Under the pieces are notes generated by a model, which was not told the origin of the DNA, made no database searches, and worked only from the letters and a program-made list of their open reading frames with translations. Positions 2,351-63,606 of a DNA stretch of 64,000 bases are shown here, piece after piece. The stretch's first letter is position 1; each line of letters starts with the position of its first letter. Made by a program: the position numbers and the translations under genes. Source of the DNA: Eledone cirrhosa (Eukaryota); NCBI GenBank assembly GCA_964016885.1, contig OZ024762.1, positions 19,778,001 through 19,842,000 of the forward strand, given 5' to 3'.

Positions 2351-2665
2351 TATACGATATTAAATAAATGGAAACTATATTTATAAAACCATATTTATTT
2401 CATTATACATATTTCAGGGATACCAAATTAAAATATGGTATGCCTTCATCAGACAAAATACAATATATAAACAGTTTTATAAATAATTTTGACGTACCCT
2501 ATTAGATGCAACCATTATTTTTGGAAGCTGTCTGGATAGACACTATAAATATAGTTTCCATTTATTTAATATCGTATATCTACTCCAAAAACTTGTCGAG
2601 TGCTTTATATCAGTTATAAAATATTTACTTGTTGTATCCCAACAATTTTAAATAGAACTTTTACA
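2351..2665. mobile_element. PLE-like pLTR derivative, family A, with inverted arms 2351-2384/2544-2578 and tail 2579-2665
   Basis: About 35-bp inverted arms, internal minus-strand hammerhead, (TA)n on both sides; near-identical to 21787-21963. Confidence 0.75.
2396..2460 (-). ncRNA. Type I hammerhead ribozyme (family A)
   Basis: Reverse complement reads TATTTTGT-CTGATGA-AGGCATACCA..TGGTATCCCT-GAAA-TATGTA-TA|ATGAAATA; helices I-III all pair. Confidence 0.8.
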
Positions 2666-3071
2666 TATATATATATATATATATATATATATATACACAA
2701 GAAGGTGCTGAAAAGTTCCTGGCTTGATCACTGCTACAGGGGCTTGCTTGGAGGCCCAACCTTCTGAGTTCTTTTTACAGGGCTTTGAAAATCTGAAGGC
2801 AAAACTGCTGCAAAAATTAGTATACACAGCAAAGCCCCTAATTTTACATATCAAAGTTAGCTTGGTGCAAGTAATTGGAATTGAAAAGATACACATACAG
2901 GTATTAAACTCAAAAATTCTAAGCATCCTATAATTAAAAAGCCCATCTGAGGCCACAAATAAATTTCTATGTCCGACACTGGTGAGGGCCTAGGGCAATT
3001 GCCCCCTTTGCTCGCCATTAAATCCGGCTCTGGGAACCAGTGGTATATAGACTCTGTCAATTTAGCACCTT

Positions 3072-3287
3072 TTAACCGTTTAGCATTTACATTACTTTAT
3101 ATTTACTATTGTATTTTCATGGTAAAGTCTTTATTTCACATAATATCGAATCTATGAGATTTTGATATTATATATTTTGAGAACAATACCTTAACATAGG
3201 TATGAGAGGCTAGTTACAGCTGGTTTGAACAGAAAGAACTGAGATAATTCTGGCCAGATATGGCCAGTTTAAATGTTAAAGGGTTAA
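3072..3287. mobile_element. piggyBac-like MITE
   Basis: TTAA at both ends; termini CCGTTTAGCATT...AATGTTAAAGGG; further copies at 18478, 18681, 26563 and 30732. Confidence 0.8.
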
Positions 3288-3585
3288 ATATAATTATTAT
3301 CTTATTAATAAGTAATATAGTATATAAAGTAATATGTTATGTCAATACTAATCTATATTTCTTTTTCTTCTATTTACAGGTCAGTACCATTATTTCTGTT
3401 CTGGTAGGTTCTATTATTTTCTCTGTTGTATGTTGAAGATTTTAAAAACAAAATGTTTTCTTTTCATACACTTTTACTATTTGTATTCCAAACCACGCAA
3501 AACCACCCTGAATTTATAATACAAACAACACTGCCCATTTTAAAAATGTTTATTTTTGTCTCAAAGCCTTCCATTATAATTTTAA

Positions 3586-3777
3586 GGGCGGAGGATTGGC
3601 AGTATCGGTAGAGGGTTGGACGCCATGCTTTGACGCATAGAGTTACGGCCCTTGCCATTCTGAGTTCAAATCGCGCCGAGGTTAACTTTGCCTTTCATCC
3701 TTTCGGGGTCGATAAAATAAAGTACCAGTAATACACTGGGTAATTGCTGGCCTTGTGCCAAATGTAGAAACAATTAT
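3586..3777 (+). mobile_element. tRNA-derived SINE family S1 (Nin/Deu-domain-like core)
   Basis: A-box-like TGGCAGTATCGG, B-box GAGTTCAAAT, core GCCTTTCATCCTTTCGGGGTCGATAAAATAAAGTACCAG. Confidence 0.85.
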
Positions 3778-4074
3778 AATTTTATGTATTAGAATTGTTT
3801 TCGACACGCTGATGCTTGTATGAGTATATTATCATAAATGTGTAAGCACGTACACACTTAGAAAAATACACACTCACAGACATACAATCATAGAAACACA
3901 CACATGCAGTGTAGCAAATGGAACACCAGCCACTGTTTTGCTATAGTTTTTTCACCAAACCCTTCCTTCCTTTTGCACACACATACATTTACACACACAC
4001 ACACACACAAACAAACACACACACATATTGTGTGACAGACGAACGGACAGACAAAAGTCACTCAAGTTTATATA

Positions 4075-4200
4075 TAGAACCTTTATCAACATTTTTTATA
4101 CCAAACCACCCGATGCGCATTTTATTATAGAATTGACTTCTACAGGACTAGACCTGTTTCATTCGTAAGAAATCATCTTCTGCACTAGTTACAGGAACTC
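4075..4200 (-). mobile_element. Degenerate family-F pLTR fragment with a mutated hammerhead core
   Basis: Reverse complement AAGATGA-TTTCTTACGAAT-GAAA-CAGGTCTAGTCCTG-TA matches family F (28945, 30195), but CTGATGA is altered. Confidence 0.6.
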
Positions 4201-60470: not shown

Positions 60471-60479
60471 AGAAAAGTC

Positions 60480-61100
60480 TACCTTACACTTCCTTTGTCA
60501 TAACTACCAGACAGGTCTACCTTACACTTCTTTTGTCATAACTACTAGACAGATCTACCAGACACTTCCTTTGTCATAACTAGCAGACATGTCCATCATA
60601 GACCTTCCTTTGTCATAACTACCAGACACTTCCTTTGTCATAACTAGCAGACATGTCCATCATAGACCTTCCTTTGTCATAACTAGCAGACATGTTCATC
60701 ATAGACCTTCCTTTGTCATAACTAGCAGACATGTCCATCATAGACCTTCCTTTGTCATAACTACCAGACACTTCCTTTGTCATAACTAGCAGACATGTCC
60801 ATCATAGACCTTCCTTTGTCATAACTAGCAGACATGTTCATCATAGACCTTCCTTTGTCATAACTAGCAGACATGTCCATCATAGACCTTCCTTTGTCAT
60901 AACTAGCAGACATGTCCATCATAGACCTTCCTTTGTCATAACTAGCAGACATGTCCATCATAGACCTTCCTTTGTCATAACTACCAGGCAGGTCTACCAC
61001 ACACTTCCTTTACCATAGCTAGCAGACAGGTCTACCACACACATCCTTTGTTATAACTAGCAGACAAATCCACCATAGAGCTTCCTTTGCTATAACTATG
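60480..61100. repeat. 39-bp minisatellite
   Basis: CCTTCCTTTGTCATAACTAGCAGACATGTCCATCATAGA; 13-aa periodicity. Confidence 0.9.
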
Positions 61101-62477
61101 AGGGAGAGGAAAACTTGACCCCTACCGCCCTTCTAAAAGCTGGTGGTGATCCAACCCTCACTATAGACATGGCCTATTGGTAGATCTGTCAGACACGTGG
61201 TTGTAAAATAAAATGAAAGCTGGTTTAAATAAAAATTATCAGCCTCAGTCTAACCCTCCACGTTTTTCTTAGATTAGAAATCTAGTTTACTGGTTCATTG
61301 GTTGTGTGTGTCTAGTTGTGTGTGTGGTTGTGTGGCTGTGTGTGTGTGTGTGTGTGTTTGTGTGGCTGTGTGTGTGTGTGGTTGTGTGGCTGTATGTGTG
61401 TGTTTGTGTGGCTGTGGTGGTGGCTGTGTTTGGTTGTGTGGCTGTGTGGTTGTGGTTGTGTGGCTGTGTGCATCTAGTTGTGTGGTTGTGTGTGTGTGTG
61501 TGTGGATGTGTGGCTGTGTGTGTGTGTGGTTGTGGCTGTATGGTTGTGTGGCTGTATGTATGTGTGTGTAGTGTGGTTGTATGTGTGTGTTACTGAATGT
61601 ATGTGTGTATCTGTATTTATATATATATATATATATATATATATATATATATATGTGTGTGTGTTACTGTATGTATGTGTGTATATATATATATATATGT
61701 GTGTGTGTTACTGTATGTATGTGTGTATATATATATATATATATATATATATATATATATATATATATATGTGTGTGTGTGTATTACTGTATGTATGTGT
61801 ATATATATATATATATATGTGTGTTTGTCCCTGATTTTTCTTTCCTTCTTTCAGTCTTGTGCTTAATTACTAATTTTCTAGATGGTACATTTGAGTAATC
61901 AATCATTGCTTCCCTCTCTCACCTTCTCTCTCTCTCTCTCTCTCCTCTCTCTCTCTCACCCTCACTCTCTTTTCCTTTCCCCAACTCCAAAAATCTCTCT
62001 ATCAACCTATCTCAGTCTCTCCTCCATCAATCTATATATATCTTCCTCACTCATTCTCTCTTTTTCTCTTCCTTTCACTCTCCCCTCTCTCTCTCTCTCT
62101 CTCTCTCTCTCACTATCTCTAGTTCTCTCTATCTTTCTTCCTCTCTCTCACACACTCTTTTTCTCTAGTCTATCTGACACTCTCTCTTTGTCTTTCTCCT
62201 CGCATCTCCCCCCTCCCTCTCTCCATCCCTTTCTCTCTTTATCAAAGCCTGTCTCCTGCCCTAGTTAGCATGTACCTTTAGCAGCAGTCAGGAGGAATGA
62301 CCTAGCTAAAAATACCACCACAACACCACTGCCAGCAACACCACCAACAATACCACCAAGATACCAGCAACACCACCAACAACAACATTGTCCAAGCTCT
62401 AGTCAGACCAGGTCATTATAGACTGAGAGAGACAGGTGCTCTCTTACTAATCAGCATCTCCCTAGGCCGTCCAAGCT

Positions 62478-63400
62478 CCACACTGACCAGGTCACAGCGG
62501 ACATAGAATGCCACGTGCCCTCCACATCACCGTAAGTTGTCCAAAATTCACACTGACCAGGTCACAGTGGACATAGAACGCCACGTGCTCTCCACATCAC
62601 CGTGAGTTGTCCAAAATTCACACTGACCAGGTCACAGTGGACATAGAACGACACTTGCTCTCCACATCACCGTGAGTTGTCCAAAATTCACACTGACCAG
62701 GTCACAGTGGACATAGAACGCCACGTGCTCTCCACATCACCGTGAGTTGTCCAAAATTCACACTGACCAGGTCACAGTGGACATAGAACGCCACGTGCTC
62801 TCCACATCACCGTAAGTTGTCCAAAATTCACACTGACCAGGTCACAGTGGACATAGAACGACACGTGCTCTCCACATCACCGTGAGTTGTCCAAAATTCA
62901 CACTGACCAGGTCACAGCGGACATAGAACGCCACGTGCTCTCCACATCACCGTGAGTTGTCCAAAATTCACACTGACCAGGTCACAGTGGACATAGAACG
63001 CCACGTGCTCTCCACATCACCGTGAGTTGTCCAAAATTCACACTGACCAGGTCACAGTGGACATAGAACGCCACGTGCTCTCCACATCACCGTGAGTTGT
63101 CCAAAATTCACACTGACCAGGTCACAGCGGACATAGAACGCCACGTGCTCTCCACATCACCGTGAGTTGTCCAAAATTCACACTGACCAGGTCACAGCGG
63201 ACATAGAACGCCACGTGCTCTCCACATCACCGTGAGTTGTCCAAAATTCACACTGACCAGGTCACAGCGGACATAGAATGACACGTGCTCTCCACATCAC
63301 CGTGAGTTGTCCAAAATTCACACTGACCAGGTCACAGCGGACATAGAACGCCACGTGCTCTCCACATCACCGTGAGTTGTCCAAAATTTACACTGACCAT
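62478..63400. repeat. 70-bp minisatellite, about 13 near-identical copies
   Basis: CACTGACCAGGTCACAG recurs every 70 nt from 62481. Confidence 0.97.
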
Positions 63401-63478
63401 GCGTCATGATTAAATGATTGGAATTTTACCACACATATATATATATGTGTATATATATATATATATATATATATATAT

Positions 63479-63606
63479 ATAGGAACAAGTAGGGCCCCGA
63501 CGGCTGAGCTCAAGCCGTTTCGACGGCTAATTCGGGACTAAATTTAGTCCAAAATTAGCCGTCGAAACGGCTTGAGCTCAGCCGTCGGGGTCCTACTCGT
63601 TCCTAT
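63479..63606. mobile_element. Family E fold-back with no tail
   Basis: 128-bp palindrome within (TA)n. Confidence 0.85.

Follow-up and report, generated by a model that had tools for sequence, protein, structure and literature searches.

Tailed palindromes of Penelope-like type in (TA)n tracts of Eledone cirrhosa may arise by reverse transcription primed from both target ends

How short palindromes with a tail on only one side come to lie within (TA)n tracts is the question raised by a 64,000-nucleotide (nt) stretch of Eledone cirrhosa DNA (GenBank assembly GCA_964016885.1, contig OZ024762.1, positions 19,778,001 to 19,842,000 of the forward strand). This stretch, hereafter the window, belongs to one contig, and all counts of copies and junctions given below are within it. 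A preliminary description of the palindromes proposed that they are retro-derived and that the second arm of each is copied from the nascent complementary DNA (cDNA) by snap-back, usually stopping just short of a hairpin in the tail. Here we find that the insertions share hammerhead motifs, tail polarity and target preference with Penelope-like elements (PLEs), and that the ends of their split and single-armed relatives favour a different route, in which reverse transcription begins from each nicked strand of the target, the two strands using different start sites on either side of the tail. We lean towards this route as the origin of the structures.

Alignment of the arms confirmed an inverted repeat at all 12 coordinates for which at least 12 insertions in seven families had been reported, and the families (A–G) are indeed seven: A (8596, 28725, 56332 and 63479), B (22153, 28945 and 30269), C (33472), D (2351), E (48786), F (49786) and G (56516). 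The arm alignments comprise 34–240 matches with 0–11 mismatches (a few flanking TA bases included), the whole insertions span 60–510 nt and the tails 57–146 nt. A separate hairpin scan, run independently, returned 11 matches, nine of which are these insertions; 2351 and 33472 were confirmed instead by arm alignment and are not tight fold-backs, having arms of ~30–45 nt and spacers of ~165 and 221 nt, respectively. One-sided tails, as originally described, are present in 10 of the 12, the exceptions being 63479, which has no tail, and 49786, where both arms reach the same end. The location within (TA)n likewise holds for most insertions: (TA)≥4 lies within 6 nt of both outer ends in nine of the 12, compared with a background of 5.3% of positions, and at 8596 the flank reads TATATG(TA)n, just beyond the 6-nt limit, bringing the insertions with TA repeats at both ends to 10. 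The remaining two depart from the pattern, 56332 being flanked on one side by GGT/AGT repeats and the tail end of 22153 being undefinable. A (TA)n target would hide any target-site duplication.

The family A palindrome at 8597–8792 (plus strand) has arms at 8597–8654 and 8659–8716 around a central AGTC, a hairpin at 8721 and a tail to ~8792, and that at 28725–28917 (plus) consists of a palindrome (28725–28840) and a tail, with one (TA)14 run common to it and the 28945 insertion. At 56315–56463 (minus), the palindrome (56332–56463) contains A/G-rich central filler and the tail, cut after CCCACTCTACTACCC and joined to the GGT/AGT repeats, ends ~15 nt beyond the arm; at 63479–63606 (no strand assigned), both arms are tail-less and GGACTAAA abuts TTTAGTCC at the centre. 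In family B, the insertion at 28945–29154 (plus) carries one hammerhead per arm (28962–29010, minus; 29022–29070, plus), a 10-nt central duplication and a tail at 29088–29154, and that at 30195–30389 (minus) has a palindrome at 30269–30389, again with one hammerhead per arm, and a tail at 30195–30268. These two (28945–30389) lie ~1 kb apart in opposite orientation, with unrelated flanks past the TA runs. The third member, at 22096–22251 (minus), is ~80% identical to 28945 and comprises a palindrome (22153–22250) with a T-run centre and a leftward tail of undefined far end.

The single palindromes of the other families vary in the extent of their arms. In family C (33472–33928, plus), a 45-nt inverted arm is followed by the 221-nt spacer, which is colinear with the tailed arm and includes a hammerhead at 33677–33734, and by a tail of ~146 nt. 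The family D insertion (2351–2664, plus) has a long antisense tail-less arm (~2356–2543) with a minus-strand hammerhead at 2396–2460, a tailed arm from 2544 that overlaps it by only ~30–36 nt, and a tail at 2580–2664 with an ACTC..GAGT hairpin at 2582. Family E (48786–48933, plus) has ~30-nt arms joined at GGAGTTCC, a tail at 48848–48933 and a hairpin at 48852; family F (49784–50298, no strand assigned) has ~250-nt arms of common distal end with hammerheads at 49971–50009 (minus) and 50083–50121 (plus); and family G (56516–56706, plus) has identical 58-nt arms, an 18-nt spacer and a 57-nt tail.

That the palindromes are retro-derived and of PLE type, as first suggested, is borne out by the hammerhead motifs, the head-to-head inverted copy with its optional tail, the TA target and the variable ends and centres. 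A type I hammerhead descriptor, relaxed after a stricter version requiring the helix II closing pair beside the core had matched nothing, finds 13 places in the window, compared with a mean of 0.04 (maximum 1) per shuffle in 100 dinucleotide shuffles. Three palindromes (28945, 30269 and 49786) have a match in each arm, two (33472 and 2351) have one in the spacer, and the other matches fall outside the palindromes, at 15702, 21336, 21857, 24986 and 27970; a scan with looser criteria also gave a variant at 11697 and a doubtful match at 1918. The descriptor is matched in families B, C, D, E and F, whose ribozymes are putative. Most of the hammerheads have a palindromic or near-palindromic loop III (TATATA, TGCGCA, TGATCA, GTAC, CAATTG, TATGTA), a trait described for PLE hammerheads (PMC4209133), and the G10.1–C11.1 pair usual in hammerheads is not evident beside GAAA in most matches. 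In addition, an ACTC..GAGT[AG]C[TC] hairpin motif, starting 2–12 nt past the short-arm end, is common to five families; it occurs 11 times in the window, compared with 2.6 (maximum 8) in 200 shuffles, and eight of the 11 occurrences fall in tails of the palindromic insertions. Published PLE insertions contain a 5'-truncated copy in inverted orientation, often carry a tail at just one end and lie in microsatellite targets (PMC8557442, PMC3846280, PMC8969392). The window copies agree in the head-to-head placement of the truncated copy, as judged from hammerhead and tail polarity, in the tail at one end (10 of 12) and in the AT-rich, microsatellite target; direct tandem copies of the pLTR (pseudo-long terminal repeat), which are not expected in every copy, were not found among the fragments.

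Several observations weigh against this assignment. Family A keeps only the 3' half of a hammerhead (GAAAC-stem-GTC), and family G showed neither a hammerhead nor the ACTC/GAGT motif in descriptor and motif scans. Rfam scans gave no hammerhead family among the matches listed (for one scan, the best 150 of 384), so that the ribozyme calls rest on our own descriptor; hairpins and microsatellites matched microRNA models, almost always below threshold. The window holds no PLE open reading frame (ORF), with no GIY-YIG match in a Pfam scan of 246 higher-complexity open frames out of 631, and PLE membership therefore rests on RNA features and architecture. Absence of an ORF is expected for truncated ends; the Pfam scan found instead a LINE-type (long interspersed nuclear element) reverse transcriptase (RT) at 44393–46135 and a zf-RVT fragment at 7847–8281. 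As regards family A, no fit by eye was obtained to the consensus of the HDV-like (hepatitis delta virus), twister or pistol ribozymes, and ARAGORN returned no genes in the window. In family G, an ATG inside the arm opens 28 codons through the tail (56622–56706, plus), which recalls Adineta, whose Penelope pLTRs take in the first codons of the ORF; a search with the 41-residue peptide gave two candidates, neither of them scored, and no homolog, which is weak evidence. Judging from sequence features, families B–F are very probably PLEs, and the same holds with less assurance for A and G. On balance, we favour reading the insertions as ORF-less end fragments, comprising a pLTR with hammerhead plus the tail, of several Penelope-like families.

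The structures most informative about the mechanism are relatives of the palindromes that are split or single-armed. In a split family A insertion (46654–46745, plus), the inverted last ~28 nt of the tail (46654–46682) is joined to a tail-less arm (46682–46745), with neither overlap nor palindrome. Similarly, a split family D structure (21707–21961, plus) begins with an inverted tail tip (21707–21751), which (TA)17 separates from a hammerhead-bearing, tail-less arm of 175 nt (21787–21961). The match of tip to tail was exceeded by none of 2000 shuffles in either case, and the inverted tips stop ~23 and ~13 nt 3' of the hairpin, respectively. A single family E copy (21279–21444, plus; hammerhead 21336–21406) has neither inversion nor tail, and its end coincides to the base with that of the 48786 short arm. 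Such agreement recurs, in that 21787 ends with the short arm of 2351 and 46682 with those of 28725, 56332 and 63479. Because copies without a palindrome end there too, the short-arm end behaves as a priming site, and the proposal that the second arm merely stops before the tail hairpin is not upheld as a general rule.

Further relatives are a diverged, tail-less single copy of family D (15626–15810, plus; hammerhead 15702–15762), a decayed single copy of family B (4120–4177, minus) and a short family F fragment (49716–49762, minus) that ends ~55 nt before the 49786 arm ends. A further family is represented by an apparently tail-less single copy at 27943–28020 (minus), whose hammerhead has a 9-bp helix I and lies between TA runs. 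The 63-nt island between TA runs at 11648–11710 (minus) contains a hammerhead variant (core CTGAATA, loop III CTTAAG), in a non-inverted fragment at 11083–11235 (plus) a TA run precedes an ACTC..GAGTACT tail hairpin (11153) and no hammerhead was found, and a hammerhead motif at 24986–25032 (plus) has a weak 4-bp helix I and undefined element ends. We also note a repeated island between TA runs at 11277–11395 and 11900–11945, which reads CTGATAGAAAC followed by the palindromic TTCCTGCAGGAA and has hammerhead-like words without helix II. The segment at 51839–51905 starts with AATTATGACAGG and has ACAGGTA..AAGTTTC, both like the 11648 island, and is possibly a rearranged relative. Beyond the tail of 22153, the segment at 22040–22095 (minus) contains GAAACAATTGTA, resembling helix III of the 27970 and 24986 hammerheads, and may be a decayed fragment from another family that was used as a target.

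The 5' ends of the copied segments show regularities of their own. In family B and the elements at 27943 and 11648, they are grouped at the 5' edge of helix I of the hammerhead (29022, 30330, 4177–4200, 28017 and 11697), and clustering is also seen in families A (AGTCC) and D (2543 and 15626). The clustered ends suggest run-off from short RNAs; in the Penelope of D. virilis, a splice junction maps to the 5' edge of helix I (PMC4209133). Short direct duplications occur at the 5' end of the copied segment, namely 10 nt at the centre of 28945 (29006–29031) and 13 nt in 49716–49762, and look as if the cDNA end had been realigned on the template and recopied, which recalls telomerase-like reiteration. 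The filler in 56332 is of AAAAG type, and one arm of 49786 contains a 10-nt duplication.

We suggest that these structures could be products of one asymmetric reaction. A dimer of the PLE RT-endonuclease bound to element RNA would nick both strands of a (TA)n tract, which is two-fold symmetric. One freed 3'-OH would prime at a proximal start just 5' of the ACTC..GAGT hairpin, giving the tail-less arm, and the other at a distal site 57–146 nt further 3', giving the tailed arm. Synthesis of both cDNAs would end prematurely, in many cases near the hammerhead at a point characteristic of the family, and the 3' ends would then be joined head to head, sometimes via a native hairpin or 1–3 nt of microhomology. 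Overlapping cDNAs would yield a palindrome with one tail, a distal cDNA stalled before the hairpin would yield a split structure, and priming by one end only would yield a single copy. The anatomy, common ends and split structures are present in the window; the biochemical steps are modelled on the Anolis Poseidon element in vitro, where both target strands are cleaved and extended, cleavage is AT-rich and a dimer is predicted (PMC11167929). In the same system, the tail corresponds to the interval between two RT start sites, and uncleaved RNA is the main substrate (PMC11167929). That both primings occur in one event, with one RNA serving both, we infer.

The snap-back alternative holds that tail-primed cDNA folds on itself, often using a native hairpin, for example hammerhead helix II, and serves as its own template as far as the tail hairpin, where it is blocked, before being joined to the target; exceptions would be due to later rearrangements. 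It predicts a short arm wholly contained in the tailed one, a spacer colinear with the tailed arm and a short-arm end that is a stopping point, and it accounts directly for a one-sided tail. Yet the tail-less arm of 2351 contains ~165 nt, hammerhead included, that are absent from the tailed arm. In 48786, with TCC common at the junction, the 2-nt loop reads GT where the native 21279 copy predicts AC, that is, it has the tail-less-arm orientation relative to the native GGAACTCC of 21279, an observation that rests on two bases. An extra event would be required for both of these as well as for 46654 and 21707. Moreover, snap-back leaves unexplained why single copies end at the short-arm base, which corresponds to an RT start mapped experimentally in the anole PLE (PMC11167929), and 49786 shows synthesis through the entire distal end. 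The palindromes 22153, 49786, 56516 and 63479 do not decide the matter; 22153 is not strong evidence against snap-back, as a TTT-mediated deletion could give the same centre. Snap-back is thus not supported as the general mechanism, with 2351, 46654 and 21707 needing further rearrangement, and we regard it as rather unlikely. Nevertheless, several points weigh against two-ended priming. Spacers are colinear with the tailed arm in six of the 12 palindromes (8596, 28725, 56332, 28945, 30269 and 33472), including all three informative family A copies, as snap-back predicts, and family A has a fixed centre, AGTCC, within a hairpin that is perhaps a native helix II. The sample is small (14 inverted events analysed for mechanism), and 21707 may be two insertions, because (TA)17 separates its pieces. 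Palindromes can undergo spacer inversion or central deletion after insertion, and such later events could turn a snap-back product into 2351, 48786 or 22153. One end of each type is paired in 12 of the 14 events (binomial 0.0065 if independent at 0.5, calculated by hand), an asymmetry that snap-back explains directly and two-ended priming explains if each site is available once per RNA. However, strand displacement, a hypothetical step, would be needed for one RNA to yield overlapping copies. A mixture of the two routes is possible.

Variants common to both arms, which had been put forward as evidence for snap-back, hold up in part. The four variants originally quoted read as described in both arms, yet within family A the signal comes only from 8596 and 63479: arm differences within the four insertions number 2, 6, 5 and 2 per 54 nt, compared with a between-insertion mean of 6.25, and two of the 105 possible pairings of the eight arms are as close as the real one. 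Arms are closer within than between insertions for 8596 and 63479, but not for 28725 and 56332, whose arms differ about as much as those of different insertions. The CCGTTGAAAC/CCGTCGAAAC example is weak because its CpG has also changed in single arms of 28725 and 56332; columns 28, 41 and 47 of the family A alignment are better diagnostics. The three shared changes in 54 nt of 63479 appear to be donor variants rather than fresh RT errors. Such variants fit snap-back, but copying one donor RNA twice also predicts them, and because both arms descend from one donor either way, they do not discriminate between the two. They could also stem from later events: whichever route made the arms, conversion or template switching between them, spacer inversion or central deletion would then have produced the shared variants as well as the unusual spacers. 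In this vein, five elements have 0–1 arm mismatches while relatives differ by ~6% (2351 compared with 21787), and the sole difference between 28945 and 30269 (one in 132 nt, in hammerhead loop II) is present in both arms, the tails being identical. Against this, the 6 and 5 differences in 54 sites of 28725 and 56332 show no homogenization, the direct repeat at the 46682 junction is at most 1 nt where slippage deletion predicts more, and the origin of the inversion is left unexplained; we consider this explanation improbable. A fixed miniature inverted-repeat transposable element (MITE) moved by a TA-targeting DNA transposase would be short and ORF-less, with terminal inverted repeats and a TA target, and the centres and short-arm ends of family A do cluster within a few bases. 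However, fold points and ends are not identical, families A, B, D and E each varying in ends or centres among tailed, tail-less, split and single copies; hammerheads are present, tails lie outside the inverted repeat, and a MITE-like element at ~42762–42841 has a different anatomy, all of which makes mobilization as a fixed MITE very improbable. An assembly or library fold-back artefact, to which the five near-identical arm pairs might point, seems equally remote, as older arms differ at up to 6 of 55 nt with CpG-type changes, centres are family-specific and found in both orientations, nine of the 11 independent palindrome matches fall in these families and the same architecture has been published for PLEs.

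Two-ended priming has a precedent in L1 twin priming, in which both target ends prime and an inversion results with microhomology, deletion or overlap at the junction. There, the second primer engages variable internal sites and overlaps are short, whereas here it would use a fixed site beside a hairpin, and overlaps reach 30–250 nt. Among PLEs, the closest likeness is to EN+ (endonuclease-containing) elements with inverted pLTR (Penelope/Poseidon, Neptune, Nematis and Hydra), for which head-to-head inverted 5'-truncated copies, one-end tails, junction palindromes or overlaps, hammerheads in the pLTR and AT-rich or microsatellite targets are described (PMC3846280, PMC8557442). The window copies differ in being ORF-less, only 60–510 nt in total and equipped with tails of 57–146 nt compared with the published 30–40 nt. 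With Poseidon PAc of Anolis carolinensis they would have in common two start sites bracketing the tail, a stem-loop at the initiation region, an AT-rich target, extension of both strands and a hammerhead uncleaved in the template (PMC11167929); the available part of that study draws no link from two-strand priming to inverted insertions. Naiad PLEs share the (TA)n preference and the inverted and tandem structures and are present in Octopus species (PMC8557442). Naiads are characterized by an N-terminal endonuclease and lack canonical hammerheads, whereas families B–F carry them, so that only family G could fit. The non-LTR retrozymes are likewise non-coding, derived from PLE pLTRs and furnished with type I hammerheads, but they consist of tandem units each with a hammerhead (bioRxiv 10.64898/2026.07.22.740005); the window copies are single or head to head, and no tandem hammerhead arrays occur among the matches in the window. 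Tc1/mariner-type MITEs and those that target TA microsatellites resemble the insertions in size, terminal inverted repeats and TA flanks, and differ in having fixed ends and no one-sided tails, ribozyme motifs or split and single forms.

Neither the architecture itself nor the snap-back idea is new, self-priming having been proposed for PLE junction palindromes in 2013 (PMC3846280), and the formation of PLE tandem and inverted structures and of their tails has been named an open question (PMC8557442). A twin-priming account for PLEs was not found in searches of the open literature. Recently active Penelope families and MITEs are listed in an annotation of Octopus vulgaris (PMC13282606), which contained no passage on such palindromic structures for the terms searched.

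The remainder of the window (GC content 36.5%) is rich in (TA)n and other microsatellites and contains abundant SINE-like (short interspersed nuclear element) repeats and one LINE-type RT fragment. The latter (44666–46138, plus; RVT_1, E 4.7e-33) is 5'-truncated, open to its stop codon and preceded by a TA-rich tract, and its 3' end has a diverged copy in opposite orientation at 47134–47374. A search with the LINE RT gave no close named match, the best named one being from Mnemiopsis leidyi (60%). The C-terminal fragment of another LINE-like ORF at 7847–8281 (minus) has a weak zf-RVT match (E 8e-4). A young SINE-like family of ~320 nt, with tRNA-like head and (ATG)n tail, lies mostly beside TA runs (6064–6367, 24151–24467, 31634–31951, 32529–32874, 42923–43265 and 47654–47996), with a weak Rfam tRNA match at 32230–32287. 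At 21072–21168, the abundant SINE-like family with (ATG)n tails is represented by two 3' ends joined tail to tail, a polarity opposite to that of the PLE palindromes. Because the inverted pairs 31641/32555, 30927/31342, 45901/47134 and 21072 consist of SINE- or LINE-like copies in opposite orientation, they were rejected as PLE palindromes. Tandem units of 121 bp at 54493–55114 belong to a second SINE-like family, and a 60-bp tandem array at 18830–20443 has ~26 nearly identical units with a short TA run in each. The MITE-like element at ~42762–42841 offers a structural contrast, its ends CACAGGGTG..CACCATGTG being flanked by TA, with neither tail nor hammerhead.

At ~20 insertions per 64 kb, junctions across the genome should be numerous enough for self-priming and two-ended priming to be told apart by counting alone, and the split and single-armed relatives, together with the common hairpin, make this open mechanistic question countable. 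The hairpin itself is a defined cis-element for an existing in vitro assay. It is likely that annotation will mistake such palindromes for MITEs or microRNA hairpins, and they match Rfam microRNA models below threshold. We tentatively propose that PLEs integrate by a programmed asymmetric twin priming, in which the ACTC..GAGT hairpin, common to at least five otherwise unrelated families, might set one start site for each strand of the symmetric (TA)n tract, with a dimer acting on one RNA. If so, a single reaction would account for the tail and the inverted pLTR, and equally for the insertions split into tip and arm and for a class of MITE look-alikes.

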